Shown: positions 24,225 through 44,654 of the stretch, piece by piece
Numbering within the stretch: the stretch's first letter is position 1
How the letters are laid out: the number at the start of each line of letters is the position of its first letter
Virus record (IMG/VR): IMGVR_UViG_3300037991_005043
Span: 24,349-88,348 of that record
Source of the DNA: a virus
Taxonomy: Duplodnaviria; Caudoviricetes
Strand: one strand, 5' to 3'
Length of the DNA: 64,000 nt
Notes under the pieces: model-generated
What the model saw: the letters and a program-made list of their open reading frames with translations, nothing else
Database searches by the model: none
Told to the model about the DNA's origin: nothing
Position numbers and translations under genes: made by a program

Positions 24225-24977
24225 CTACTCCATTCTAGGTGCTTTCATAATTATAGCATCAGCAGAAACTAGAACTAATGGAGAATCATCTTTCAAGAAA
24301 ATATTGATTGTAGATGATTTATCAAAAGCCACATGTAAGGGTGCAGAAAATGAAACAGTAGCGGGTTCTCCAATACAAATACTAGGAATAGTTTCTTTGT
24401 ATTTACCGCCATTATTAATTGCACCGCTACTAACAGTTAGAGATAATTTAGTTTGTTCTTCTAATTCCTCTGATTCTACATCGAATGTGTAAATGCCAGT
24501 TTTTATTATATCACAAGTAGAGATTGCTTCTTCTAATTTAGATGCGTGTAGTTTTGCTCCAAATTCAAAAGTCCATGAATCGCCTCTCCAACTAGGGAGT
24601 GTTTCTAAATCTTGCTGAAATGTAATTCCATTAATCAAAACTTCTGCTTGTTTGTAAGTTACTTCCTCTATAATAATAGGCATAGTAGCAACTTTCTTTC
24701 CACATGTCAAAGATATGCCTCCATCTATTCTTTCAATAGTAACTTCACCTTTGAATTTTCTAGCAAAGGCTAGAAGTTTCTTTATGCTAACAATAACTGA
24801 ACCTTCTTGTTCAGCATTAGCATCTATGAATAATTTAACTACACATGTGCTATCTCCATTATAGAAATATACTGATTCTGTAGCAACTTCAATTAATAGG
24901 TTATCGCCTAAGTTTTTCTTTAGGCTTGCTCTTTCTAAATACGATTTTAAGTCATCTGCGTCAATTTTAAATCTCAT
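24225..24977 (-). CDS. pcn: DNA sliding clamp (PCNA-like)
   Basis: 250 aa with two repeated clamp-like domains, adjacent to polB; RFC genes and PIP boxes occur in the operon. Confidence 0.7.
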   Translation of the reverse strand: MRFKIDADDLKSYLERASLKKNLGDNLLIEVATESVYFYNGDSTCVVKLFIDANAEQEGSVIVSIKKLLAFARKFKGEVTIERIDGGISLTCGKKVATMPIIIEEVTYKQAEVLINGITFQQDLETLPSWRGDSWTFEFGAKLHASKLEEAISTCDIIKTGIYTFDVESEELEEQTKLSLTVSSGAINNGGKYKETIPSICIGEPATVSFSAPLHVAFDKSSTINIFLKDDSPLVLVSADAIIMKAPRME

Positions 24978-32770: not shown

Positions 32771-32976
32771 TCAAATTCTCTCCTAAGAATTTCTAATAAC
32801 TCCTTTGCTTCTTCCCTGTTTAATCTAATACCCTTTCTTGTGGGTTTTTCACTTCGATACCATCTGAAATCAACTACATCTATCTTGTAATAATTACCTT
32901 TGGTAATAAGTAACTCTTGTTCTTCATCTCTAACTATCTGACCTATTTTCTCAAAATCTTTATTCATGTCATCCAC
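32767..32976 (-). CDS. PC4/YdbC-family ssDNA-binding protein
   Basis: 'YKIDVVDFRWY..EKPTRKGIRL..EE..EL' PC4 signature. Confidence 0.85.
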   Translation of the reverse strand: MDDMNKDFEKIGQIVRDEEQELLITKGNYYKIDVVDFRWYRSEKPTRKGIRLNREEAKELLEILRREFE

Positions 32977-33359
32977 CCTTGTTTAAATTTATCAAGTTCT
33001 TGTCTAGAAGTAAAATATCTAGGGGTATCTAATTCATCTAATCTATTAACTACCCAACATACTCCACCTAGACTAGAGATTTGCACTATCTCAAACTGCG
33101 CTGAATTAATCTCTATAACCTCTAGTGTGTTAATCTCAGGAACTAATCCATATCTCTTAGTTATATCATTAGCGACTTCTCTAATATTCTCTACCACATA
33201 TTTGATAATGTGCGCCCTTTGAATAGGTATTTTAGGGGCAACTTCAAATTTGATTTTACCTTTCATATTACAGACTTTACATTTGTTGCCTTCACAAATA
33301 GGGCAATTAACTTCTGCATCATGAGGAGCAGGTAATATTACAGTAATCGCCTTTTTCAT
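32964..33359 (-). CDS. Hypothetical protein with CxxC-G-x2-CxxC zinc motif
   Basis: 'CPICEGNKCKVC'. Confidence 0.55.
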   Translation of the reverse strand: MKKAITVILPAPHDAEVNCPICEGNKCKVCNMKGKIKFEVAPKIPIQRAHIIKYVVENIREVANDITKRYGLVPEINTLEVIEINSAQFEIVQISSLGGVCWVVNRLDELDTPRYFTSRQELDKFKQGWMT

Positions 33360-33620: not shown

Positions 33621-33725
33621 TTATTCCTCCATCTTCGATTCGCATTTGCATTGTTCAACACGCCTTCCTATTTTGAATAGATTACATTTGTCACATTTAA
33701 TTGAGTTATTTGTTAAATACTCCAT
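33621..33725 (-). CDS. 34-aa Cys-rich micro-protein
   Basis: MEYLTNNSIKCDKCNLF...QCKC; GGAGGA RBS. Confidence 0.4.
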   Translation of the reverse strand: MEYLTNNSIKCDKCNLFKIGRRVEQCKCESKMEE

Positions 33726-33727
33726 AT

Positions 33728-33865
33728 TTATTCCTCCTTAGTTTCTCCACATTTTTCACAAGTATATTCGTCTATCCATTCTTCAAAATATACCGCATCA
33801 TCGGCATATCCATCCCATCCATCATACACATGCCCGCCAGTTTTTTTCCATTTATGATTGCACAT
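33728..33865 (-). CDS. 45-aa zinc-ribbon micro-protein
   Basis: MCNHKW...YTCEKCGETK; GGAGGA RBS. Confidence 0.5.
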   Translation of the reverse strand: MCNHKWKKTGGHVYDGWDGYADDAVYFEEWIDEYTCEKCGETKEE

Positions 33866-33867
33866 AT

Positions 33868-35367
33868 TTATTCCTCCAACAGAACTGCTACATCGGTAGT
33901 CAAGAAAAGACTAGCGATAGACATAGATGCTACAAAACTATTCTTAGTTACTAGAACAGGGTCATAGACATTATATTGGTCTAGAGGTTTATATACACAA
34001 TCTATAGCATCAAACGCTCCTAGTTGAACAGTGAGTTTATTCTCATCGTATTCTCCGCCACTATTATCTACTAAAGTTTTGATTGGTGCTGATAGTGCTT
34101 TAGCAACTATTTTTTCCCCTAAACTATTACCTAACGCATATCTAGATTGTAATAAAGAAAAACCTCCACCAGTAACAATACCTTCACTCAATGCACATTT
34201 AGTAGCGTTAAGAGCATCATCTAATCTTTCTTTCTTTTCCCTCATTTCTAATTGAGAACCTGCGCCAATTCTAATAGTAGCAACACCACCAGTTAGTTTA
34301 GCAATTCTAGATTTAATTCTAGCCTTATCATAACCAGTCATATCATCTGCTAATTTTCTTAGCGTGGATATTTTATCTGAAACATCACCAGTTCCACCGA
34401 TGATAGTAGAGTATTCCTTACCGATAATTACTCTATCACATGTTCCAAATTCATCTATAGAAACCAACTTAGGGTCATCTTTAGATTCATCAGTATATAC
34501 AACTCCACCTAAAAGTGAACTAATATCTGATAGTTCATCTAATTGAGCATCACCAAAGTTAGGTGCTAAAATAGCACAGACTTGAACGGTTTTCTGTAGT
34601 ATGTTCATAACTAAATTATCTAAAGCATTACCTTCTATTCCTTTACATAGAATTAGAAGTGGTCTGTTTTGTGCCGAACTTATCTCTAACATAGGTAGCA
34701 AGTCTTGAAATTTCCTAAAAGAAATATTAGACATGAAAACTAGCGGGTCATTAAAGGTGCATTTTCCATCTTCGCCATTAGCCATAAGGTGAGAAAGATA
34801 CCCTTCATCTATTCTAAATCCATCTCTAGTGACTAATTCAGTTTTATGATTCTTCGATTCTTCGACAGTAATAACTCCATCTCTACCTACTTTGTTAATT
34901 GCTTCTTGGATAAGTTCGCCTAAGTATTCATCATTATTTGCCGCTATTGTAGCGACCCTTAGAATATCATTATCTTGAATCTCAACGGCATTATCATCTA
35001 AGTATTCTAATATCTTTCTTTGAGCCAACTCTAACTCTAGCCTCAACTGGTGTATATTAAAATCATCAAGATTAGATATTTCTTCGCATAACGCTCTAGC
35101 AATTACACAAGCAGTAGTAGTTCCATCACCACTAGAATCTTGTGCTTTACTTGCTAAGTTCTGCACCATTTGAATACCCATTTGAACATAAGGGTCATCA
35201 CTTCTAACATACTTAGTAATAGTAACACCGTCATTAATTATTACAGGGGGTTCTCCCTGTAAAATAACTGTTCTTGCTTGTGGTCCTAAAGTTGGACTTA
35301 CCGTATCTGCTACTAAATTAATTCCTTCCAGTAATTTTTGTTTTACTTCTTTCCCATGTAATATCAT
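33868..35367 (-). CDS. groEL: Group I chaperonin GroEL (Cpn60)
   Basis: 'TLGP', 'NDGVTI', 'GDGTTT', 'KERLDDALNAT', 'GIVTGGG'. No GGM tail. Confidence 0.95.
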   Translation of the reverse strand: MILHGKEVKQKLLEGINLVADTVSPTLGPQARTVILQGEPPVIINDGVTITKYVRSDDPYVQMGIQMVQNLASKAQDSSGDGTTTACVIARALCEEISNLDDFNIHQLRLELELAQRKILEYLDDNAVEIQDNDILRVATIAANNDEYLGELIQEAINKVGRDGVITVEESKNHKTELVTRDGFRIDEGYLSHLMANGEDGKCTFNDPLVFMSNISFRKFQDLLPMLEISSAQNRPLLILCKGIEGNALDNLVMNILQKTVQVCAILAPNFGDAQLDELSDISSLLGGVVYTDESKDDPKLVSIDEFGTCDRVIIGKEYSTIIGGTGDVSDKISTLRKLADDMTGYDKARIKSRIAKLTGGVATIRIGAGSQLEMREKKERLDDALNATKCALSEGIVTGGGFSLLQSRYALGNSLGEKIVAKALSAPIKTLVDNSGGEYDENKLTVQLGAFDAIDCVYKPLDQYNVYDPVLVTKNSFVASMSIASLFLTTDVAVLLEE

Positions 35368-35480
35368 TTTACTTCTCTCCTTTCTACATTCATTGTTCCA
35401 TCTTTATTCTTAGTCAATATTGTAAGGCTACCATCTTCATAAACGATAGTCATTCTTGTTATTGTCTTATCTTCAAACAT
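35364..35480 (-). CDS. 38-aa micro-protein
   Basis: MFEDKTITRMTIVYEDGS...; ATGA overlap with groEL. Confidence 0.45.
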   Translation of the reverse strand: MFEDKTITRMTIVYEDGSLTILTKNKDGTMNVERREVK

Positions 35481-35669
35481 TTATTCACTCCCTTCTAGTA
35501 TTCTCAAAGTCTTACTCAACTGCAAAGTAGCGAAATATAATTGTTCTTCATTAAAAGGGTCGTTGTAAGGAAGCATTTCTTGAGCCGAGAGAGCCGTCTT
35601 TGCTACTTCTATCGCCTTAGAAATTTTCTCTTTCAATTTTTTAATTTCTTCGTCTTTATCAATCATCAC
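35481..35669 (-). CDS. Hypothetical protein
   Basis: Co-oriented small ORF. Confidence 0.45.
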   Translation of the reverse strand: MMIDKDEEIKKLKEKISKAIEVAKTALSAQEMLPYNDPFNEEQLYFATLQLSKTLRILEGSE

Positions 35670-35770
35670 ATCATCTCCATATCTTCATCCAAAAAACCAT
35701 GACAGTTAGGGCATTCAATTAGATTCGCATTAACAAAGTTATGGCAATGAGGACACAATATTTCCTTCAT
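35666..35770 (-). CDS. 34-aa double zinc-ribbon micro-protein
   Basis: MKEILCPHCHNFVNANLIECPNCHG. Confidence 0.5.
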   Translation of the reverse strand: MKEILCPHCHNFVNANLIECPNCHGFLDEDMEMM

Positions 35771-35940
35771 TCCTCATCCTCCACAACATGAGATTCATAA
35801 TATCCTCTAATATCATCTATGTTTATTCCTAGATATTCTGCATAGCATCTATCACTACAAAAGTATCTTGTTCCAACAGGAGTTGTGACGGTCATCACTT
35901 GTTTTCTATCATTACCGCAATTAGTACAACTTCTAAACAT
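35767..35940 (-). CDS. 57-aa TRASH/FCS-type zinc-finger protein
   Basis: MFRSCTNCGN...RYFCSDRCY. Confidence 0.6.
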   Translation of the reverse strand: MFRSCTNCGNDRKQVMTVTTPVGTRYFCSDRCYAEYLGINIDDIRGYYESHVVEDEE

Positions 35941-36155
35941 CAGCCTTCCACCAACCTAGTTTGAAATCCTTTATACAAATCGTATGCCTGTTTCTTATCA
36001 GGAATAGTATCTAATAGATTTTTAATAATCATAATTAAAAATTCTAATTCACCGATTAATAATCTATCATCCATTTCTTCTCTAAACAAATCACCGTTTT
36101 CTGTAAGGTCTAACATTCCTTTCAATATGTATTCGTATAATTCAATATCATTCAT
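35940..36155 (-). CDS. Hypothetical protein
   Basis: Coupled small ORF. Confidence 0.5.
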   Translation of the reverse strand: MNDIELYEYILKGMLDLTENGDLFREEMDDRLLIGELEFLIMIIKNLLDTIPDKKQAYDLYKGFQTRLVEG

Positions 36156-36286
36156 TCTTCTTCACCATTAGTTAAATTAATTAAATGAGAACAAAGTGGG
36201 CAACATAATTTATTATTATGTTGTGTCATAAATCTCATAGTGTATTTAGCACCACAAATTTCACACTTTGTTCCCTTAGCAATCAT
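36152..36286 (-). CDS. 44-aa zinc-finger micro-protein
   Basis: MIAKGTKCEICGAK...LCCPLCSHL. Confidence 0.5.
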   Translation of the reverse strand: MIAKGTKCEICGAKYTMRFMTQHNNKLCCPLCSHLINLTNGEEE

Positions 36287-36513
36287 TCCTTATCCACCAC
36301 ACATAGTATCATATTGTATGGAACAAAGATATAATCACTATAAGTCTGATATTCAGGTCTGCTACTAAACATAATAGTTTTACCTTCTAGTGATTTATCT
36401 TTTTCACAAGAGATAACTTTACCACTATGTTGTAATCTAGTAAAAATACCGCTATCCTTTCTAACCTTTCTTAGTTCTACAACTGCGTGTTCTCCTACTG
36501 CCTTCAATTTCAT
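36283..36513 (-). CDS. groES: Co-chaperonin GroES-like protein
   Basis: 'MKLKAVGEHAVVE...SGIF...GKVIS...GKTIMF...YIFVPYNMILCVV' follows the Cpn10 pattern. Near groEL. Confidence 0.7.
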   Translation of the reverse strand: MKLKAVGEHAVVELRKVRKDSGIFTRLQHSGKVISCEKDKSLEGKTIMFSSRPEYQTYSDYIFVPYNMILCVVDKE

Positions 36514-36517
36514 ACTA

Positions 36518-37084
36518 TCATTCCTCTTCTCTTTCTAATTGATTAATATTTAAACCTGCTATGGATAATGCATTACCCCATAATTGAGTTCTAACTACTT
36601 CTAGGTTATTCCAAATCTCTAATTTATCAGGTTCATCTTTACACCAAAATCCGTAGTGTTCTTCTCCGCCTAAAACATAAGCGCATTCTAAAACAGATTT
36701 CCACTTCGCAACAGTATTAATATCAGTTCCGCTAAAATATGCACTACCAAAAGGATGAGTATGAACCCAACACTTTAGAGGTAATTTCATTCCACCATCT
36801 AACTGCTCAAATCTTTTGAAATCTACAAAGCCACCTGTTCCAGTAGAAACAAATATATTATTGTTGGAATCAATAGCATATTGCATTTCTAGGTGTGGTA
36901 GTATTTCTGTAGAAGCATACCATAATGCCTTCATAATCTCCATGTTATGTTCCAAATATTCTACATCTTCTATCTTAGTAGCAAGTGAATTTCTAAAAGC
37001 ATCCTCTAATAGATTAGCCCATGTGTTCTCTACATGGAAAATCGCTTCTTCTCTCAATAATTGCATTTCTTTTGTTTTACTCAT
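36518..37084 (-). CDS. JAB/MPN+ (JAMM) metalloprotease
   Basis: Exact HxHx7Sx2D motif 'HTHPFGSAYFSGTD', with an upstream Glu in 'LEMQY'. Confidence 0.9.
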   Translation of the reverse strand: MSKTKEMQLLREEAIFHVENTWANLLEDAFRNSLATKIEDVEYLEHNMEIMKALWYASTEILPHLEMQYAIDSNNNIFVSTGTGGFVDFKRFEQLDGGMKLPLKCWVHTHPFGSAYFSGTDINTVAKWKSVLECAYVLGGEEHYGFWCKDEPDKLEIWNNLEVVRTQLWGNALSIAGLNINQLEREEE

Positions 37085-37370
37085 CTTCTTTCATCTCCTT
37101 TATCCTTTCTTCATCTATTTCTTTTTGCGCTCTTTTTAGGGAATGCGCCATCTTTAACATTAAACCTATCTTTTCAAAAAGATAAGATGATGTTTTTTCA
37201 TATCCTACGATATGTTGTATTGAATTTACTAATGGAGTAAGTGTTATTCTTGTAGCAGAAACATAACTATCACAAGTATTACAAACCCTAGAAAATTTAA
37301 AGGGTGTAGGGCTACAACCTACTCCATCCATTTCTTTTTCACATATACAGCAGACATTTTTATCACTCAT
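37077..37370 (-). CDS. Zinc-finger protein between the E1 and JAB genes
   Basis: 'CCIC...VCNTC' plus a helical C-terminus. Confidence 0.55.
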   Translation of the reverse strand: MSDKNVCCICEKEMDGVGCSPTPFKFSRVCNTCDSYVSATRITLTPLVNSIQHIVGYEKTSSYLFEKIGLMLKMAHSLKRAQKEIDEERIKEMKEDE

Positions 37371-37936
37371 AGGCTCACCATCTTAAAATCTTCAACTTCA
37401 TTTTCTCCAAAATATCTTTGAATCCATTGTGCGCCCAAACCTGCTACTACTGCTTGCATAAATTGGACTCCTTCTTTATCTCCAACCCATGAATCTCCTT
37501 GACAACTAAATGTTCTAGTGTCATCTCCAATTAACATTTCTTCTAATTCTACACCTGTAACTTTAGAAGATAATAACATGCAGTTTCTACCTTGTGCTCT
37601 CAAATCAAGCCAATCTACGCCTGTTCTGTAAAGCATTTTTCTTAGTTGTAAATTATCTACGCAGGCAACAACCAAATCATATCCTAACACTTGTTGTTCT
37701 GTTAAGATAGCATAAGGACTAGAAGTAACAACACTATTGTATTTCTCTCCCATTGTCTTAGCCTTATTATTACCTACATCAATTACATCATAATTTTGAT
37801 AGAGTAAATTCTTAGTTTCTATAATATCGGGGTCTGCTACCGTAATATCATACAATTCAACTCTATCAATAAGTGGAATTAGATAACTACCAATTCCACC
37901 TGCTCCTATTACTAATACTGTTTTTCTTCCTGTCAT
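37367..37936 (-). CDS. ThiF/MoeB/E1-family Ubl-activating enzyme
   Basis: 'VIGAGGIGS', 'DPDIIETKNL', 'GNNKA', 'CVDN..LR', candidate catalytic Cys in 'FSCQG'. Confidence 0.88.
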   Translation of the reverse strand: MTGRKTVLVIGAGGIGSYLIPLIDRVELYDITVADPDIIETKNLLYQNYDVIDVGNNKAKTMGEKYNSVVTSSPYAILTEQQVLGYDLVVACVDNLQLRKMLYRTGVDWLDLRAQGRNCMLLSSKVTGVELEEMLIGDDTRTFSCQGDSWVGDKEGVQFMQAVVAGLGAQWIQRYFGENEVEDFKMVSL

Positions 37937-38000
37937 TCTTTTGCCTCCTTATCTATTTCTTCAACCTTAAACTGGCTTACTACATTTATTGCATATTCTC

Positions 38001-38804
38001 TCATTTTAATTCACCAACTGTTTTATTTATTATATCCGACTTTTGAATTCCTAGTGTATCGAGAATCTTATTCATCTCGGCTCTAATAGCGTTAGTCGAA
38101 AAACCGCTACTCTTTGCTATTTTATTTGCGCTGATGTCAATATTATACATTAGACACGCAACTCTAATAACGGCAGGAACATAGCACCTACCTCTATTGA
38201 AATGTGTGCTACTCAATCTATTAGTAAGCATCACATTTACTTGTTTAATATTATTTAGAATATCTCTACTAGAAGTTAAACCATTACAAGTTCTTTCTAT
38301 TAAATAGTCATCACTAGGAATACATTTTAGAATTTTCATACCATAGTGATTTTTTATTTTTCTAAGCAATTTGTTTGTCTGTTTCAAGTTAATGAAGAAT
38401 TCATTACAAATTACCTTAGTAGTTACTGGGGTTCTATTTTCAAACAGAACATAAGCCACTACTGCTACAGATTTAACTTCTATACTTTCTTTAGTCATTA
38501 TTCTTTTTTGAAAGAGTTCGTGATAAACCTCACTAACACGCTCATTCAGCGAGGGAAATCCGAACTTGCCTAAATATACCCCACACATCCTTAGACCCTT
38601 TAGAATCGCTTTATTCGACTCTTTTAGGTCAGTGCTAGTAGTCTTGTTAGAATATACCCTATTGTTTGAATCTAAAGTAAAATTCGTTCTAGTTTCAAAC
38701 GGTTCAACTACTAGCACCAACCCACAATCGGAACAGACTAATTCACCTAATCTTTCATCAAAATAATTTGAATGACTCAAACACTCAAAACACTTCGTCT
38801 GCAT
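38001..38804 (-). CDS. tfb: Transcription factor B (TFB/TFIIB) homolog
   Basis: Zn ribbon 'CFEC...GELVCSDCGLVL', two cyclin-like repeats, and a C-terminal HTH. Confidence 0.85.
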   Translation of the reverse strand: MQTKCFECLSHSNYFDERLGELVCSDCGLVLVVEPFETRTNFTLDSNNRVYSNKTTSTDLKESNKAILKGLRMCGVYLGKFGFPSLNERVSEVYHELFQKRIMTKESIEVKSVAVVAYVLFENRTPVTTKVICNEFFINLKQTNKLLRKIKNHYGMKILKCIPSDDYLIERTCNGLTSSRDILNNIKQVNVMLTNRLSSTHFNRGRCYVPAVIRVACLMYNIDISANKIAKSSGFSTNAIRAEMNKILDTLGIQKSDIINKTVGELK

Positions 38805-38847
38805 GGCACTATCTAGCCATACTTGCTATAATATATTTATGGTAATA

Positions 38848-40152
38848 CTATTCCTCTTCTCCAATAGTAGAGGCAATTAGGTCATCTATTTTTGAATCTC
38901 TTTTACCCTTATTAGCATCATAAGTATTTACAACAGTATGCACCCTTGAAACCATATACTCATCATTCATAGTAGCCAATATTCTAGTCGCTATTTGGTC
39001 GCCCATTGGTGAATTGTTATTTGTATTATCTATACAGATAGCATCGGAATATCTACCATTGCCTCTATAGATTCTAGTTTGAACTGCTTGCCTTCCTGCA
39101 TCCACCGCACTTCTAATTTTATGATTAGGGGTTAATTTCCAGTCAGCCCCAATACCTCTAACCTTAATATGATGAATGTGGCTAAATCTATCATCGGGAG
39201 TGTTGTTATTATATTCTACAAATACCTTATCACTATGTTTTTCTATTATGTCCTGTAGCATCTTAGATGCCCTAGATGACACAATATCAGAAGTTCTATT
39301 CTGCATTAAATAGTGAATCATTAGTTTTTGTTCGGCACTACTAGGCATCCTTTTCATAGTTAAGAAGAATAATTTTCTAGGTGAAATCTCAGAATAACTA
39401 TTCGTTTTACCATGTCTAAATGCATTGATAAATAATTGAAGTGCTTCAAAAGACATACTACCCCAAACACCATCAGATAATTCTATGGCACATTCTCTAT
39501 CGCCTATTCTTTTTAGATTAAGCAACACTTCCCTTTCAGTAATGTCGTTTTTATTACTATCAATATAAAAGAAACTATATGGAGTTCTATTAGTTAAAGC
39601 ATATTTAATATCTACTGGTATGTCAATAGCACTTCTAATATCCTTTCTCCAAACATCAATATTATTATTGCTATAAGTGTGGTCTGCTATTTTTAGTATA
39701 ACTGTAGTTAGCATCCCGATAAAATCCTTTGGATTGTCAAAGGCTTTACCATTTATTGAATAGATAACATTACTGTTTTTTTGAGAAGAATCAAAATCAT
39801 CAAGTATTGGTTCTTTAGTTACTTTCTCCCTATAAAATTCGATTATTAATGGTAAAGAACTATCTTCCTTTACCACGCTTGCAGACACCTTGATATACAG
39901 ATTATCTTGATTATTTTTATTATTTGGTGTAGCATTTAATATTTTTCTAATCCACCTGTCAGTAGTGTTTAGCATAGAATTATACATGGGTCTAGCACTA
40001 CCATTAGCAGGTTTTACTTCATAGTTTGAGTTTGGCTCGGTTCGAGTAATGAATTGTCCTTGAACTTCTACAGTATAACTTAAATCTAAACTACCAACAG
40101 TATTTCTTGAGTCGTCAGCAGTTAATAATGTAAATTTGGTATTATGTTTCAT
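38848..40152 (-). CDS. Protein with unknown N-terminal region and C-terminal E2/UBC-like domain
   Basis: 'VQTRIYRGNGRYSDAICIDNTNNNSP' aligns with UBC '[27 protein letters not shown]'. Asn (39058-60) and Cys (39034-36) are 8 residues apart. Confidence 0.55.
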   Translation of the reverse strand: MKHNTKFTLLTADDSRNTVGSLDLSYTVEVQGQFITRTEPNSNYEVKPANGSARPMYNSMLNTTDRWIRKILNATPNNKNNQDNLYIKVSASVVKEDSSLPLIIEFYREKVTKEPILDDFDSSQKNSNVIYSINGKAFDNPKDFIGMLTTVILKIADHTYSNNNIDVWRKDIRSAIDIPVDIKYALTNRTPYSFFYIDSNKNDITEREVLLNLKRIGDRECAIELSDGVWGSMSFEALQLFINAFRHGKTNSYSEISPRKLFFLTMKRMPSSAEQKLMIHYLMQNRTSDIVSSRASKMLQDIIEKHSDKVFVEYNNNTPDDRFSHIHHIKVRGIGADWKLTPNHKIRSAVDAGRQAVQTRIYRGNGRYSDAICIDNTNNNSPMGDQIATRILATMNDEYMVSRVHTVVNTYDANKGKRDSKIDDLIASTIGEEE

Positions 40153-40157
40153 GCTAA

Positions 40158-40322
40158 TCACATCAAATATGTATTTGAAGTATCTACATTACAAGCGTCA
40201 TGCATTTCATTCTTAATCTCCTCAGCAGTTAGGAGTTGTCCTCCACATATTCTACATCGGGTCGCTATTCTCTTTTTGTAAGCCCTGTGGCTTTCAACAT
40301 ATTCGGGGTCTTTTTCTTTCAT
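40158..40322 (-). CDS. 54-aa CxxC...HxxC zinc-finger protein
   Basis: 'RCRICGGQLL...MHDAC'. Confidence 0.55.
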   Translation of the reverse strand: MKEKDPEYVESHRAYKKRIATRCRICGGQLLTAEEIKNEMHDACNVDTSNTYLM

Positions 40323-40665
40323 TTTGTGTCATCTCCATTTTACAAACAAAGCAATCGGAAGAACATTCTTTTTTGTTCTTCTTGTGATATTTACTAAATT
40401 TATCTACCTTAGTAAATAGTGAATCTAAATAAGAATCGAAGCCCATATTTACGGCTTCTTCAATATCCCAAAGACAATCTTGGAATAGGGGTTTAATTTT
40501 GCGTAGAGATAAATCCTCTACAAAATAATTGTGTAGAATATAATCTATTCTTCTACTTAGAATTTTTTTGATGTTAGGGTCATCAACCATTAGGGGTAGT
40601 AGCATTAATTTTATCCTTATGCTACTACCCCCATAATGTGAAGTGTGTAGTGCTTCACTAATCAA
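40294..40665 (-). CDS. Hypothetical protein
   Basis: Co-oriented ORF right after the Ubl. Confidence 0.5.
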   Translation of the reverse strand: MISEALHTSHYGGSSIRIKLMLLPLMVDDPNIKKILSRRIDYILHNYFVEDLSLRKIKPLFQDCLWDIEEAVNMGFDSYLDSLFTKVDKFSKYHKKNKKECSSDCFVCKMEMTQNERKRPRIC

Positions 40666-40696
40666 ACGAGATATTACAGAACTATGTAATACTTAT

Positions 40697-40903
40697 TCAG
40701 CAGTTGCCTCCTTGCAATGCAGGAATTAGTGTTACTGATTCTACACTATCCCATTCGATTTCATTTACTGTTGCTCTACTTCTCATCTCTCCATCTACAA
40801 ATATCCAGTAGTCGGAGTGCTCTTGAATTTGCTCTAAAACACCGCTTGAATCTAGCGACATTTCCGTGTGTCCTGTTTCATTCATTATTGTTACTTGTAT
40901 CAT
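40697..40903 (-). CDS. Ubiquitin-like beta-grasp protein with C-terminal GG plus 2-residue extension
   Basis: 68 aa with beta-beta-alpha-beta-beta-beta pattern, 'WIFVDGE', and ending 'SVTLIPALQGGNC*' (codons verified at 40697-40714). Confidence 0.85.
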   Translation of the reverse strand: MIQVTIMNETGHTEMSLDSSGVLEQIQEHSDYWIFVDGEMRSRATVNEIEWDSVESVTLIPALQGGNC

Positions 40904-40904
40904 C

Positions 40905-42719
40905 TTAGTTCACTTCCTGTATGTTTTGTTCTGTATTTAAACCTTCTACACTAGGTTTTAGTTTTTCTAATGCGTTAAGCACTATTTCTTGATAATTATC
41001 TTTAGGCATAAAAGAATCAATATTTATAGAATAGGAATTATATTGATACTTAGACTTCGCTAATATCTTAGCGGTTATTTCTCTTGCCGTTGTTATTAGA
41101 CGCTCATATCTTCTTTGACTATGTTGTAATCTAAACCTTGTCATGGTTGTCCTATCATTTGCTAAATCATTACCCATTTGAATATACATCTGTTTTTCTA
41201 AATCAGACATCATCTCTGTTTCTTTTCTAAGATACCTTTTCCATCTACTAAACGATACATTATTGAACCCATATTGATAATTAGATATATTATTGACTTG
41301 ACTTGTTATTCGGCAAACCATATCATTGAAAGAGCGAAGTTCTTCGGAAGGGGGTAATTCATCTAGTTTATCTCCCTTTTTTATCACTAAATCATTAGAT
41401 TGCATTTGTTCTGATAGATTTTCTACTTGAATTTGTAAGTGTTCTAAATCTGTTATAACTGGATTTAACAATCTTTTTCCAGCAATTAAGGCACTTGTAT
41501 CTTCTGAAAATATGAATGATAGATTATCATGATATACAAAATCATCATCTCTTGACTGTAATTCATCAATCACACCATAATCAGTTAATTGTTCTCTGAT
41601 TGTATCAGTCATACTCTCTAATAACTCTTTATTAGTGAAACCTGTTATTTTAGCAGTAAGAGAATTTATCTGTTTGGCTATCTCTTCTTTCCTTTCTTTA
41701 GCAATCCAAATGTCATGTTCTGCGCTGGCTCTAAATTGCATAAAATATGCACAATATTCTCTAGCAACTCCATGAATCCAATATAATTTGATAGCCTTTA
41801 CTAACAAATCCTTCTCTTCATCAATTATTTCTTGATAATCTCTTCTATGAGCAATCATTTCACTCATATCTGAAAGCAATGAAGCAGGAGGCTTTCTCTT
41901 AGCCTTCATTGCTTTATTGTTTCTATAAATGATTGATGAGAAAACTAGATAGTCATCATTGTTTAGATGAGAAGGTGTTTTCTTGAAACGCCCACCACTA
42001 GCGATTTTAATATAATCAAGCAGGTCTATATTATAGAATTTCTCAATATCGAATAAGTCCTCTAGAGTAATATCTCTATCCTCAATCATATCTCTCTCAT
42101 CAATTGATGTGAGGAGGCTTTCATCTATCTTATAATAAAAACTTTCACAATTAAATCTACTATCTATTTCAGAAAGTAGATTGACTCTATTTTGATGTTT
42201 TTGGAAATTATCACTAGCCGTAAATTCTTTGTAAGTCATATCTGCTTCTGCATTTTTTCTCCAATTATTTACATCGCTATCTTCGACATGATGCGGTTGA
42301 TAATTTTCTTCCAACATGATTCTTCTAGCAATATGATAATTTTCTATGTGGTCTGAACCCAAAACTGTAATATTACCGTTTAGTGTGTTTTCTATCTCAT
42401 AGTGATATACAATAGAATGCCCACAAATACAATGCCCCACAGGATGACCCCATTCTTCCGCCATTGCTTCTAATCTATCATTCATAGCAACATTTCTGCT
42501 TCTTCTAAAAACTCTACCTGTTGCTCTCCATTCTAATCTAGCATCATCATAATTATCTGCTTCAGAAACGGCAACAATATTAGCCATAAGTTTTCTATCC
42601 CAATGTCCTCTTGCTTCAGTAAAAGAAGTATTAGTCAATGAAAGACTATTCTCAATCTCTCTTAAAAGTTCTAATTCTTCCTCATAATTTTCATACGCCA
42701 TACATGTCATCTCCGTCAT
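40905..42719 (-). CDS. 604-aa hypothetical protein with N-terminal zinc-binding motif
   Basis: 'GHCICGHSIVYHYEIEN..NG....GSDHI'; helical remainder; ends 2 nt before the Ubl start. Confidence 0.6.
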   Translation of the reverse strand: MTEMTCMAYENYEEELELLREIENSLSLTNTSFTEARGHWDRKLMANIVAVSEADNYDDARLEWRATGRVFRRSRNVAMNDRLEAMAEEWGHPVGHCICGHSIVYHYEIENTLNGNITVLGSDHIENYHIARRIMLEENYQPHHVEDSDVNNWRKNAEADMTYKEFTASDNFQKHQNRVNLLSEIDSRFNCESFYYKIDESLLTSIDERDMIEDRDITLEDLFDIEKFYNIDLLDYIKIASGGRFKKTPSHLNNDDYLVFSSIIYRNNKAMKAKRKPPASLLSDMSEMIAHRRDYQEIIDEEKDLLVKAIKLYWIHGVAREYCAYFMQFRASAEHDIWIAKERKEEIAKQINSLTAKITGFTNKELLESMTDTIREQLTDYGVIDELQSRDDDFVYHDNLSFIFSEDTSALIAGKRLLNPVITDLEHLQIQVENLSEQMQSNDLVIKKGDKLDELPPSEELRSFNDMVCRITSQVNNISNYQYGFNNVSFSRWKRYLRKETEMMSDLEKQMYIQMGNDLANDRTTMTRFRLQHSQRRYERLITTAREITAKILAKSKYQYNSYSINIDSFMPKDNYQEIVLNALEKLKPSVEGLNTEQNIQEVN

Positions 42720-42942
42720 TTATTTCAAAGTTTCTTTGCTCCTGTAGTATTTGGTCTAGCATCTTATCAATTTGCTTAGGCATACTTTCAAAGATACCTG
42801 CTATTACCTTTCTATTAAGACTAATCCAAACTCTATAATATTGATTTAATACTAATTTAGGAACATCATCATCGCCAATCGTGATAACAATTGGGGATAT
42901 ATCGGCATCTTCTACTATTGCAAATTCTATTTGTCTATTCAT
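42691..42942 (-). CDS. Hypothetical protein
   Basis: ATGA-coupled. Confidence 0.55.
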   Translation of the reverse strand: MNRQIEFAIVEDADISPIVITIGDDDVPKLVLNQYYRVWISLNRKVIAGIFESMPKQIDKMLDQILQEQRNFEINDGDDMYGV

Positions 42943-43247
42943 TGTGTCATCTCTCCTATTACGCTTATTAATGCGAACATGTTTTCATATTCTTTACTTG
43001 TCGAATAATTATCTAATCTATCTAAGACTTCATCCGATGCTATTTCTATTACTAAACCTGCTAGTGTTTTAGCAAGTCTTTCTACGCTGGCTTTCGATAG
43101 AGAACTACTTAATCTCTTGAATAGTTGCTCTCTATATCTTTCTTCTAGAGCGCAGGTAATACAATCCTCCCTAACAAAAATTTCATGAGTCTTGTCAAAT
43201 TTTACTGTTACTCCTGCACCATTACATTCTTTACATTTATCTGTCAT
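42939..43247 (-). CDS. Zinc-finger protein (CxxCxGxG...CxxC)
   Basis: 'CKECNGAG...DCITC'; GAGGTGA RBS. Confidence 0.55.
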   Translation of the reverse strand: MTDKCKECNGAGVTVKFDKTHEIFVREDCITCALEERYREQLFKRLSSSLSKASVERLAKTLAGLVIEIASDEVLDRLDNYSTSKEYENMFALISVIGEMTQ

Positions 43248-43252
43248 TTATT

Positions 43253-43882
43253 TCACCTCTTTAGGAAAGCATACTTTTCTTCTCTTTCCTTTAGTTTATT
43301 TTTTATGTGGTCTTTACCCCACCAAATAGGGGGTTCTCTTTTCTTCCATGAAGCAAAAGACCACTTTGCTTCTAGGTAGTAGTGTCTATAAGATTCTATC
43401 ACAAAATCCCATTCAGTATCGAGGGGATATTGTTGAAAGTAATCTTCTCTATTTAATCTGTATTTATCAGCCATAGCAATAAAAACAGGCGTGGCTTGTT
43501 TCCAATCACCATCTTGAATATGAAAAACGGTATCTTTTATTCTAGACTCCGAGCCATGAACTTTACCATATCTGTAGGTATATTCATCACAAAGAGCAAT
43601 ACCATGTTCATATAACCATTTTGCATTGTGATTAGATTGCCTAGCCCAAATAGTGCTAGGGTGGTTTAACATAGCAGGCTTCATCAATTTAGAATCAATC
43701 TTACTATGGAATTCTTTCAATTGCCTTAGTGTTGGCTCAACATTATATTCTTTTAGATATAGAAAATATAATTCGTTGGTGTGCAACATTTGACAAGTTT
43801 CAGTCGGCATCTTTACGATGTGCTTATCTATCATATCTATGACAATTCTTCGTGGACTTCTATATTTTGCAAATATATTCAT
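43253..43882 (-). CDS. denV: Pyrimidine-dimer DNA glycosylase (T4 endonuclease V family)
   Basis: 'MNIF...DKHIVKM..E..QML', 'NHPSTIWAR', 'L..EYTYRYGKVH'; AGGTGA RBS. Confidence 0.8.
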   Translation of the reverse strand: MNIFAKYRSPRRIVIDMIDKHIVKMPTETCQMLHTNELYFLYLKEYNVEPTLRQLKEFHSKIDSKLMKPAMLNHPSTIWARQSNHNAKWLYEHGIALCDEYTYRYGKVHGSESRIKDTVFHIQDGDWKQATPVFIAMADKYRLNREDYFQQYPLDTEWDFVIESYRHYYLEAKWSFASWKKREPPIWWGKDHIKNKLKEREEKYAFLKR

Positions 43883-44019
43883 ATGTATCACCTATTAAAA
43901 AAAAGAAGTGGGGAAAAATGAAGGGGGAAAAGGAAGCAACCCCCCATACTTTGCTGGAAAACAACTTTTCATTCTTTACTGTATAAACCCCACTATGGCT
44001 AAAAGCCTAGAGTATTTAT

Positions 44020-44415
44020 TTATTCTTCCTCAACCTCTATTATACTTGAGTGTAGAGAAACCCTTCTAATGAGGTCTAATCCTAAATCAAATGGATGTCC
44101 TCGATAATCAACATCAGAAATATCTTCTCCGATTTCAATACATCCAAAACTATCTGAACTTACTTCTTCTAAGTTAGACATTGCTCGATTAATGTTTCTA
44201 ATGTTGGGGTATTCATCATACCACTTTCTGCCTTCAAAAACAAACTTTAGAACTTCTACATCTTTCCAAATCGCTTCTTTGATTTCTTCATTATATCCGT
44301 CATATAGAGATACTACATAAACTGAAACATTATCAGGTTCAGCCTCTCTACACGCTTCGATTAATTCTCCATTTGAGCGTTCTGTTACAATTGTTACATC
44401 ACTGCTATATCCCAT
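44020..44415 (-). CDS. Hypothetical phage protein
   Basis: Start probably MGYSSDV, after GAGGGA. Confidence 0.55.
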   Translation of the reverse strand: MGYSSDVTIVTERSNGELIEACREAEPDNVSVYVVSLYDGYNEEIKEAIWKDVEVLKFVFEGRKWYDEYPNIRNINRAMSNLEEVSSDSFGCIEIGEDISDVDYRGHPFDLGLDLIRRVSLHSSIIEVEEE

Positions 44416-44417
44416 AA

Positions 44418-44654
44418 TTAATCCCTCGTTGCTCTTTTTTGATTCCAATATTGTAGTCTAATCATAGCATCAATTAGATTGTTATAATTAAAAGAACTTT
44501 GATTCTTTGCATATTCTTCAGTTTCATATTGGTATTTTCTTTTTGCTGATGCTAATTCGGTTTCAACCTGATTTTTGGGATATGCTTCTCTTATTCTCCC
44601 GTAGGTATTAACCAAATAGTTTAATGTTAATTCTTCTGTTGTACTGTGTTTCAT
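44418..44654 (-). CDS. Hypothetical protein
   Basis: AGGTGA RBS. Confidence 0.55.
   Translation of the reverse strand: MKHSTTEELTLNYLVNTYGRIREAYPKNQVETELASAKRKYQYETEEYAKNQSSFNYNNLIDAMIRLQYWNQKRATRD

Follow-up and report, generated by a model that had tools for sequence, protein, structure and literature searches.

Does a tailed archaeal virus bring a complete ubiquitin-like conjugation machinery of its own into the cell? The question is raised by a gene string on the minus strand of an 88-kb, 95%-complete magrovirus genome (IMG/VR record IMGVR_UViG_3300037991_005043), from which a stretch of 64,000 nucleotides (positions 24,349 to 88,348 of the record; the window) was analyzed. In the surface ocean, magroviruses rank among the most abundant viruses of archaea, and their hosts are the uncultured Poseidoniales. 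To our knowledge, prokaryotic ubiquitin-like (Ubl) conjugation is so far a cellular function, represented by SAMPylation and by the Bil, Bub and CBASS antiphage systems. Our analysis suggests that this virus probably encodes its own Ubl conjugation cascade, a variant of the Bil-like systems. The four open reading frames proposed in the first-pass annotation (Ubl, candidate E2, E1 and JAB) were confirmed on the minus strand and are listed below with their neighbors, in window numbering.

40905..42719, minus strand: 604-aa protein, a conserved upstream neighbor, its end 1 nt from the Ubl start
40697..40903, minus strand: Ubl precursor, 68 aa; Gly-Gly at 40706-40711, tail Asn-Cys at 40700-40705
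38848..40152, minus strand: candidate E2 (E2/E3-like hybrid; P437), 434 aa from the ATG at 40152, 437 aa from a GTG at 40161
38887..39297, minus strand: UBC/RWD-like domain of P437, residues 289-425 (437-aa numbering); Cys376 at 39034-39036
38001..38804, minus strand: TFB (TFIIB-like transcription factor); Pfam Zn_Ribbon_TF 2.1e-7, NCBIfam TFIIB 9.2e-8
37367..37936, minus strand: minimal E1, 189 aa, a ThiF-type adenylation domain with its P-loop at 37889-37906 and the candidate catalytic Cys145 at 37502-37504
37077..37370, minus strand: Cys-rich 97-aa ORF between the E1 and JAB genes, overlapping both; variable
36518..37084, minus strand: JAMM/MPN+ metalloprotease (JAB), 188 aa; Glu66 at 36887-36889, HxHx7Sx2D at 36722-36763

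Of the two possible P437 starts, the ATG is probably the right one because the homologues begin at that Met; residue numbers nevertheless follow the 437-aa frame.

The modifier, its activating enzyme and its protease

The 68-aa protein ends in LIPALQGG-NC, as first read, and the beta-grasp fold assigned to it was borne out by a structure model and by fold matches to ubiquitin and, at the same Z as ubiquitin, to MoaD and ThiS. The BilA chain 8tyz_B, BubA 9eav_C and SAMP1 2l52 were also among the fold matches. No match was found in Pfam, NCBIfam, PHROG or PADLOC, and membership in the ubiquitin, ThiS or MoaD families was not seen at the sequence level. In 56 variants, the Gly-Gly is invariant and followed by zero to three variable residues, which are arbitrary and not Cys-specific. 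The protein is also strongly depleted in lysine (mean 1.3% vs 7.7%; none at all in 20 of the 56), as would fit a lysine-directed modifier avoiding self-conjugation. Searching for longer, fused or split versions of the Ubl yielded only two probable mis-starts.

The E1 is a clear ThiF-type protein (Pfam ThiF 5.9e-14, 52.2 bits vs a cutoff of 28.1), and the GAGGIG, CVDN-x3-R and SCQ motifs reported at first reading were all found, so that the GxGxxG nucleotide loop and the DN-motif Asp that binds Mg are both present. When its family profile was compared with the PDB, the best match was UBA5 (1.5e-10), followed by MoeB, MccB, Cap2, UBA3, Uba1, Uba4, SAE2 and ThiF. Invariant residues are GxGGIGS, D35, D37, K42, N43, Q47, K58, C92-x-D94-N95, R99 and S144-C145-Q146. 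The Cys of this last motif is a candidate for the catalytic residue in or near the crossover loop; the motif lies 51 residues past the Mg Asp, and the alignments to solved E1s end at residue 115. Two oddities pointed out in the first-pass annotation are real and family-wide: in the alignment with UBA5, the NLxRQ Arg is matched by Tyr46, which is at least 90% conserved, and the two CxxC pairs of the structural Zn site are missing, no CxxC being present in the sequence. The N-terminal Arg-finger helix is lacking as well, the protein starting 10 residues ahead of the Gly loop and the Pfam match beginning at profile position 21. In PADLOC, the best matches were Cap2 E1 halves (3.6e-11), and the Bil models were matched only by the Rossmann part of the E1.

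The protease carries the exact JAMM signature that had been claimed for it, H108-T-H110-x7-S118-x2-D121, and none of 56 variants departs from E66, H108, H110, S118 or D121; Pfam Prok-JAB is matched at 4e-5 (23.9 bits, slightly below the cutoff of 25). Its family profile retrieved AMSH-LP (2.6e-6), AMSH, Sst2 and a Caldiarchaeum Rpn11-like protein (7e-4), and aligned WIHTHP...S..D with AMSH-LP, so that the deubiquitinases AMSH and Rpn11 stand nearest to it. The gene is kept even at loci whose Ubl already ends in Gly-Gly (L022 and L068).

P437 and the linkage of the four genes

The AF2 model of P437 (pLDDT 91, pTM 0.84) consists of an N-terminal region of ~285 aa and a C-terminal UBC/RWD-like domain formed by the last ~135 residues. 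Residues 289-425 match UBC, RWD and UEV chains almost exclusively, at only modest Z. Cys376, the sole invariant Cys of the family, belongs to a C-[IV]-D...GDQ motif. The model places it after strand E360-367 and before helix H386-398, in the putative beta4-alpha2 loop. The model thus points to a C-terminal domain that probably has an E2-like (UBC) fold and would be the probable carrier enzyme. The motif on which the E2 assignment was first based does read TRIY-RG-N-x7-C-I-D, but the HPN-like Asn varies across the family, where only [IFV]-C-[IV]-D is conserved and no conserved His-Pro-Asn precedes Cys376.

Sequence comparisons placed P437 in no named family. The family counts 123 representatives at 50% identity; P437 itself had no match in Pfam, NCBIfam, PHROG or PADLOC, none of 104 members matched UQ_con, Prok-E2 or RWD (Pfam, E<=1), no other Pfam family recurred, and the family profile found nothing among PDB sequences. 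With the model as query, Foldseek gave no significant match in the PDB and BFVD returned only three unnamed viral homologues; the ESM Atlas, whose own model was poor (pLDDT 0.39), was uninformative. When the C-terminal domain was aligned by HHalign with five E2 domains of the Cap2 type, obtained via Prok-E2_B matches in Bacteroidota genomes, the result was not significant (P 0.12), and the pairing of Cys376 with the Cap2 Cys in the top local alignment was for this reason not counted. A single-sequence scan of IMG/VR with P437 found nothing, the homologues coming from protein databases only; no match was present among INPHARED phages, and a search for shorter E2-domain versions, fused or split, gave fragments only.

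The linkage of P437 to the other three genes is strict. The set is retained in hundreds of related viral genomes, and its co-conservation, on which the cascade idea depended from the start, had no exception among scorable loci: with either the Ubl or the E1 as anchor, all IMG/VR loci of sufficient length contain the complete set of four, in constant order and on one strand. P437 was found at 66, the E1 at 61 and JAB at 61 of 69 Ubl-anchored loci, and each locus without one of them stops at a contig end. Around the E1, JAB (78/78), P437 (63/63) and the Ubl (44/44) were always present on the same strand. The features described above are each conserved in 55-60 distinct homologues, which makes them more than a chance resemblance. 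The small ORFs between the four genes turn over freely while the four persist; the 97-aa Cys-rich ORF, which has no Pfam or NCBIfam family match, has a homologue in only 10 of 69 loci and is not part of the core.

Two neighbors are conserved as well. TFB is present in 66 of 68 E1-anchored loci, and 61 of 69 loci have a homologue of the 604-aa protein upstream of the Ubl. The 604-aa protein has an invariant C97-x-C99-x-H101...H106 and no Pfam or PDB match, the ESM Atlas returning only unnamed viral clusters; it is a possible partner or target of the Ubl system. Many genes of the string encode acidic EEE C-termini, which were mostly set aside as a shared tag since they mostly coincide with GAGGA(A) before the next ATG.

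All relatives belong to one virus lineage in which synteny is generally conserved, so that the co-conservation weighs less than if the genes co-occurred in unrelated backgrounds. Even the most distant homologues of P437 adjoin ThiF and are magrovirus-like, as are the divergent loci L066 and L067. A TerL-anchored scan for relatives that had lost the module reached only 11 close relatives, and among 185,579 species genomes, a pattern scan turned up no more than two short contigs, both in bacterial MAGs and probably contaminants of viral origin. The module belongs to the core of the replication/transcription arm in every relative examined and is not a patchy accessory, which favors a role in the virus's own program, that is, in host takeover or the control of viral or host proteins, over a defense-island role.

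Conjugation or sulfur transfer

One could propose that the Ubl, E1 and JAMM protease perform E2-independent, SAMP-like conjugation and that P437 is an unrelated replication or transcription factor using its RWD/UBC-like domain only for protein contacts. Archaeal SAMPylation, including that of haloarchaea, runs without an E2; the E2 call has a modest Z and no sequence support; the non-catalytic RWD and UEV domains share the fold and account for many of the top fold rows; and the P437 gene adjoins TFB, not the Ubl. This is nonetheless unlikely, as the family's one invariant Cys, with its conserved motif, falls in the putative E2-equivalent loop, the linkage of P437 to the E1, JAB and Ubl is without exception, and the E1 scores 29.6 bits against the NCBIfam UbaA model, whose cutoff is 450.

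The usual viromics annotation would make the Ubl a sulfur carrier, converted by the E1 to a thiocarboxylate for thiolation and trimmed by the JAMM protease as carriers are by QbsD and Mec+. QbsE/QbsD and CysO/Mec+ are indeed sulfur-carrier pairs in which a JAMM protease trims a masked Gly-Gly, the E1 is minimal and ThiF/MoeB-like, and MoaD and ThiS equal ubiquitin as fold matches. Moreover, moeB and mec are listed among core viral AMGs in PMC13079714, which cites Kieft et al. 2020. We consider a sulfur-carrier role improbable. The lack of a ThiG, MoaE or thiolase partner, first noticed in the window, holds over the whole 88-kb genome, where neither rhodanese, PP-loop thiolase, MoaE nor ThiG was found (in the viral genome only; the host could supply such enzymes), and the E1 has no rhodanese domain. 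The kinship of JAB with AMSH and Rpn11, the depletion of lysine in the Ubl, its arbitrary tail residues and the strictly linked, Cys-bearing UBC-like partner likewise argue against it.

That the genes are neighbors only through the fixed gene order of magroviruses, with no joint function and with the E1, JAB or both acting on something besides the 68-aa protein, is very improbable: all loci do come from one lineage, the string conserves TFB, the 604-aa protein and an 83-aa protein equally well, and the four genes are spread over ~4.4 kb with others between, but the parts fit specifically (a masked Gly-Gly needs a protease, a Gly-Gly needs an E1, and the JAMM protease is present), the JAB-ThiF pairing recurs in unrelated crAss-like phages, and the four genes outlast the small ORFs around them.

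A probable viral cascade and its known relatives

Conjugation by a viral cascade is the reading we retain. Of the four-part cascade claimed in the first-pass annotation, the Ubl with its masked Gly-Gly, the E1 and the JAMM protease are solid; conjugation itself, including the thioesters and each step of the chemistry as well as substrate and purpose, we infer from the established folds, motifs, conservation and strict gene linkage. The JAMM protease would cut off the one to three residues past the Ubl Gly-Gly. The minimal E1, which probably forms a homodimer as UBA5, ThiF and BubCD do, would then adenylate the exposed glycine and load the Ubl onto Cys145, from which it would be handed to Cys376 in the UBC-like domain of P437. 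The large conserved N-terminal region of P437 might select the substrate, so that a single protein would combine the E2 and E3 functions, as has been proposed for the E2s of Bil systems; a target lysine would then receive the Ubl. Reversal of the tag would probably also fall to the JAMM protease. Possible uses put forward in the first-pass annotation are proteasome targeting, the disabling of host defenses, the marking of competing viruses' tails and control of TFB.

BilABCD comprises the Ubl BilA, the E2 BilB, the JAB BilC and the E1 BilD (10.1101/2023.09.26.559546, 10.1101/2023.09.04.556158). The same four roles are proposed for the virus: as in Bil, its JAB would pre-process a Ubl with a masked reactive Gly, its E1 and E2-like protein have a Cys, and there is no separate E3, the E2 being the supposed selector of the target. 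However, BilD is large, with IAD-AAD-CYS architecture and a Zn site (PMC11601596, 10.1101/2023.09.26.559546), whereas the viral E1 is a single 189-aa domain; the Bil order is Ubl-E2-DUB-E1, unlike the viral Ubl...E2-like-TFB-E1...JAB, whose genes are not contiguous; the viral E2-like protein, with its 285-aa N-terminal region, founds a sequence family of its own; and the viral module is a core gene set, not part of a bacterial defense island.

Bub operons (6E/DUF6527; PMC11601596) share with the virus a minimal, homodimeric-type E1 resembling UBA5/ThiF, a JAB partner and diverse Ubl sequences. Their E1 and E2 lack a catalytic Cys and form oxyesters, whereas both viral candidates keep an invariant Cys, and their Ubl-E2 and JAB-E1 fusions and DUF6527 serine protease have no counterpart in the virus. 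From the non-canonical eukaryotic UBA5-UFC1-UFM1 cascade the virus differs in that its E2-like protein and Ubl have no detectable sequence relation to UFC1 and UFM1 and in that its protease is of the JAMM and not the Cys type. The SAMP/UbaA/JAMM1 system has the archaeal setting and the small beta-grasp protein with Gly-Gly, E1 and JAMM protease in common with the virus, but no E2 to compare with the linked UBC-like partner; SAMPs also double as sulfur carriers, and the viral E1 stays far under the UbaA model cutoff. The type II CBASS proteins Cap2/Cap3 follow the same E1, E2 and JAB logic, and Cap2 gave the viral E1 its best PADLOC matches, but Cap2 fuses E2 to E1 and conjugates the cyclase, not a free Ubl.

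Our literature searches found no paper describing the cascade, in agreement with the first-pass annotation, but its E1 was not new: ThiF/MoeB is a common gene of archaeal viruses and has already been linked to ubiquitination (PMC8276007). Reports of viral moeB/mec AMGs and archaeal-virus ThiF (PMC8276007; PMC13079714; Asgard virus Nidhogg, 10.1101/2021.07.29.454249) concern genes of the E1 class seen here, and probably of the JAB class too, as single genes known by annotation; none describes a masked-Gly-Gly Ubl, a UBC-like partner or the four-gene set.

If the cascade is real, a virus of a globally abundant lineage brings the whole Ubl machinery itself, and viral moeB and mec, routinely counted as auxiliary genes of sulfur metabolism, would have to be reinterpreted at least in the magroviruses. 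The range of ubiquitin-type enzymes would grow by a new E2-like family and by a 189-aa minimal E1 that has Tyr in place of Arg and no Zn site, both bearing on the evolution of E1-E2 cascades. The idea is directly testable, since it involves four small proteins that E. coli can express, so that the uncultured host is not needed. More tentatively, all magroviruses could carry, as a core function, a complete and self-contained Ubl cascade with a new E2 family fused to a substrate-recognition region, tagging host or viral proteins in infection, for example to rewire transcription together with TFB or to direct host proteins to the archaeal proteasome. Such a system would be the first offensive use of Ubl conjugation by a prokaryotic virus, the mirror of Bil defense.

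Gene order and context of the ubiquitin-like module

The source record is an 88,348-bp IMG/VR virus (CheckV completeness 95%), and the window covers its right-hand 64 kb. A tail tube protein and a large terminase, along with a family B polymerase, mark it as a tailed virus, and the archaeal-type TFB (TFIIB-like) gene in its genome places it among archaeal viruses. Its relatives originate from marine metagenomes and have the magrovirus replication arm (PolB, ligase, chaperonin, RNR) in common with it. All the ORFs named in the first-pass annotation are present, on a single, tightly packed minus-strand gene string with numerous start/stop overlaps, in this order of transcription:

40905-42719 (-), 604-aa protein
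40697-40903 (-), 68-aa ubiquitin-like protein (Ubl), ending in GG plus a masking Asn-Cys tail
(-), two small variable ORFs
38848-40152 (-), 434-aa candidate E2-like protein (437 aa from a GTG start at 40161)
38001-38804 (-), TFB
37367-37936 (-), E1
(-), small Cys-rich ORF
36518-37084 (-), JAMM protease (JAB)

In the minus-strand module, 13 of 67 genes (gene ends at 33700-44500 (-)) finish in a short acidic stretch of two or three residues (EEE, DEE or EE), versus 2 of 23 in the plus-strand modules. These ends are mostly encoded by GAGGA(A) immediately 5' of the ATG of the next gene, so the acidic codons also serve as a Shine-Dalgarno-like site that couples translation; the E2-like gene terminates in GEEE, yet the next start lies 43 nt off. 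Just downstream of the viral chaperonin gene lies that of a possible co-chaperone, a 131-aa protein (32964-33359 (-)) with a DnaJ-like CxxCxGxxxCxxC zinc motif; the protein is kept in 56 of 69 related loci.

Linkage across related viruses

Among 63 IMG/VR loci anchored on the Ubl, every one that is long enough has the 604-aa protein, Ubl, E2-like protein, TFB, E1 and JAB in the same order on one strand. Independent anchoring on the E1 retrieved 303 IMG/VR contigs; in the eligible loci of the best 80 of these 303, which like the others all represent one virus lineage with conserved synteny, JAB was present in 78/78, the E2-like protein in 63/63, the Ubl in 44/44 and TFB in 66/68. No relative that had lost the module was found among the loci examined, and the most distant E2-like homologues still adjoin a ThiF gene. 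The small ORFs amid the module genes are mostly lineage-specific. In the most divergent relatives (L067:15929-16552, L171:7379-7993, L172:1397-2017 and L170:1424-2056), the gene between E2-like and E1 encodes only 204-210 aa, about 60 aa less than the TFB of the window, and keeps a weak TFIIB zinc ribbon, which indicates that a TFB-like gene persists inside the module even when shortened.

Relatives of the E1 (26-31% identity), annotated as "thiamine biosynthesis protein ThiF", were also seen in crAss-like phages (L071:2256-4654, which is Bacteroides phage crAss001 gp77-gp76, and L070:2385-4651). There the gene is directly preceded by that of a 414-aa "metalloprotease", which weakly matches Prok-JAB (4.9e-4) and hits the magrovirus JAB HMM at 5e-5 to 1e-6. 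This pair, too, lies within the replication module, and neither a Ubl nor an E2-like partner was recognized at these loci.

Components of the putative conjugation pathway

The E1 matches Pfam ThiF with 52 bits (cutoff 28), and a 17-sequence profile retrieved UBA5 first (1.5e-10), followed by MoeB, MccB, Cap2, UBA3, Uba1, Uba4, SAE2 and ThiF. Its invariant positions are the Gly loop, D35, D37, K42, N43, Q47, K58, C92-x-D94-N95, R99, an LDLR..GRN block and S144-C145-Q146. The enzyme is stripped down: the N-terminal Arg-finger helix, the Zn CxxC pairs and a rhodanese domain are all missing from the sequence, and Tyr replaces the Arg of NLxRQ. The candidate catalytic Cys145 lies 51 residues C-terminal of the Mg-binding Asp, a position similar to that of the crossover-loop Cys of ThiF and MoeB; we infer this equivalence, because alignments to solved E1s end at residue 115.

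The JAB retains Glu66 and H108-x-H110-x7-S118-x2-D121 in all 56 variants. In its family profile, WIHTHP...S..D aligned to AMSH-LP, AMSH and Sst2, which are deubiquitinases (2.6e-6 to 2.6e-5), and also to a Caldiarchaeum Rpn11-like protein. The protease is kept even in two relatives with a Ubl that terminates in an exposed GG from the start, which suggests that it also strips the tag from targets.

Lysine makes up on average 1.3% of the Ubl, versus 7.7% in adjoining genes (56 variants), and is absent altogether from 20 of the 56. Such depletion is expected of a lysine-directed modifier that spares itself and is consistent with conjugation, although not decisive. Besides the GG, the Ubl (40697-40903 (-)) has a conserved His-rich surface, made up of N-E-T-G-H-T in the turn between beta1 and beta2 and of H-P-T-H-W following the helix; this His cluster could serve to bind a metal or to dock an enzyme. 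The stop of the 604-aa gene lies 1 nt ahead of the Ubl start, and nearly all relatives have a homologue of 375-604 aa upstream of the Ubl. Pfam and PDB searches matched this protein to no family; its invariant residues (C97-x-C99-x-H101...H106, E108, N111 and S122) look like a metal site, and it could be a partner or a target of the Ubl system.

The 437-aa protein and its homologues form at least 123 clusters at 50% identity, about 370-480 aa long and none of them named, in which Cys376 is the only invariant Cys. An AlphaFold model built from 104 sequences was confident (pLDDT 91, pTM 0.84), and a Foldseek search of the PDB with it gave no matches. The HPN motif is missing, the Pfam E2, Prok-E2 and RWD models matched no family member, the family profile matched no PDB sequence, and HHalign of the UBC-like domain to Cap2-type E2 domains was not significant; the call is therefore limited to a probable E2-like enzyme outside any filed E2 family. 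For the conserved N-terminal 285 residues no convincing fold match was found; they may serve in substrate selection, in analogy to the E2s of Bil systems. Across 185,579 species genomes, a pattern scan gave two hits to the family, on a 7.5-kb contig of an Altibacter MAG (L072) and a 2-kb contig of a Balneolaceae MAG (L073), and none in archaeal genomes; both probably stem from magroviruses and were mis-binned with bacterial sequence.

Alternative readings and known systems

The main alternative to an E1-E2 relay is an E2-free, SAMP-like mechanism, which we consider unlikely. A sulfur-carrier system, with viral moeB and mec as auxiliary genes, is the standard viromics annotation (both are listed as core auxiliary genes in PMC13079714), but this reading is weakened by the deubiquitinase-like protease profile, the Lys-poor Ubl, the strictly linked Cys-bearing UBC-like partner and the lack of rhodanese, PP-loop thiolase, MoaE and ThiG across the whole genome.

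MoeB/ThiF genes are among the commonest auxiliary genes of archaeal viruses and have been tied to ubiquitination (PMC8276007), an Asgard-virus preprint (10.1101/2021.07.29.454249) covers E1-like genes only, and Borg elements carry deSAMPylases. None of these three sources describes the four-gene set, and the searchable magrovirus papers do not mention ThiF, ubiquitin or JAB.

In its predicted roles and chemistry, the set resembles BilABCD (10.1101/2023.09.26.559546), with a masked Gly, a JAB, a candidate Cys in both enzymes and no E3. The architecture of the viral E1 lies nearer that of the minimal homodimeric E1s UBA5, ThiF and BubCD (PMC11601596), and Bub, unlike the viral set, forms oxyesters and lacks the cysteines. 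The genes and motifs described in the first-pass annotation are borne out, and its interpretation, viral Ubl conjugation, is supported in part. As the viral set fails defining features of each family compared, it is best regarded as a variant of these systems rather than a member of any of them.
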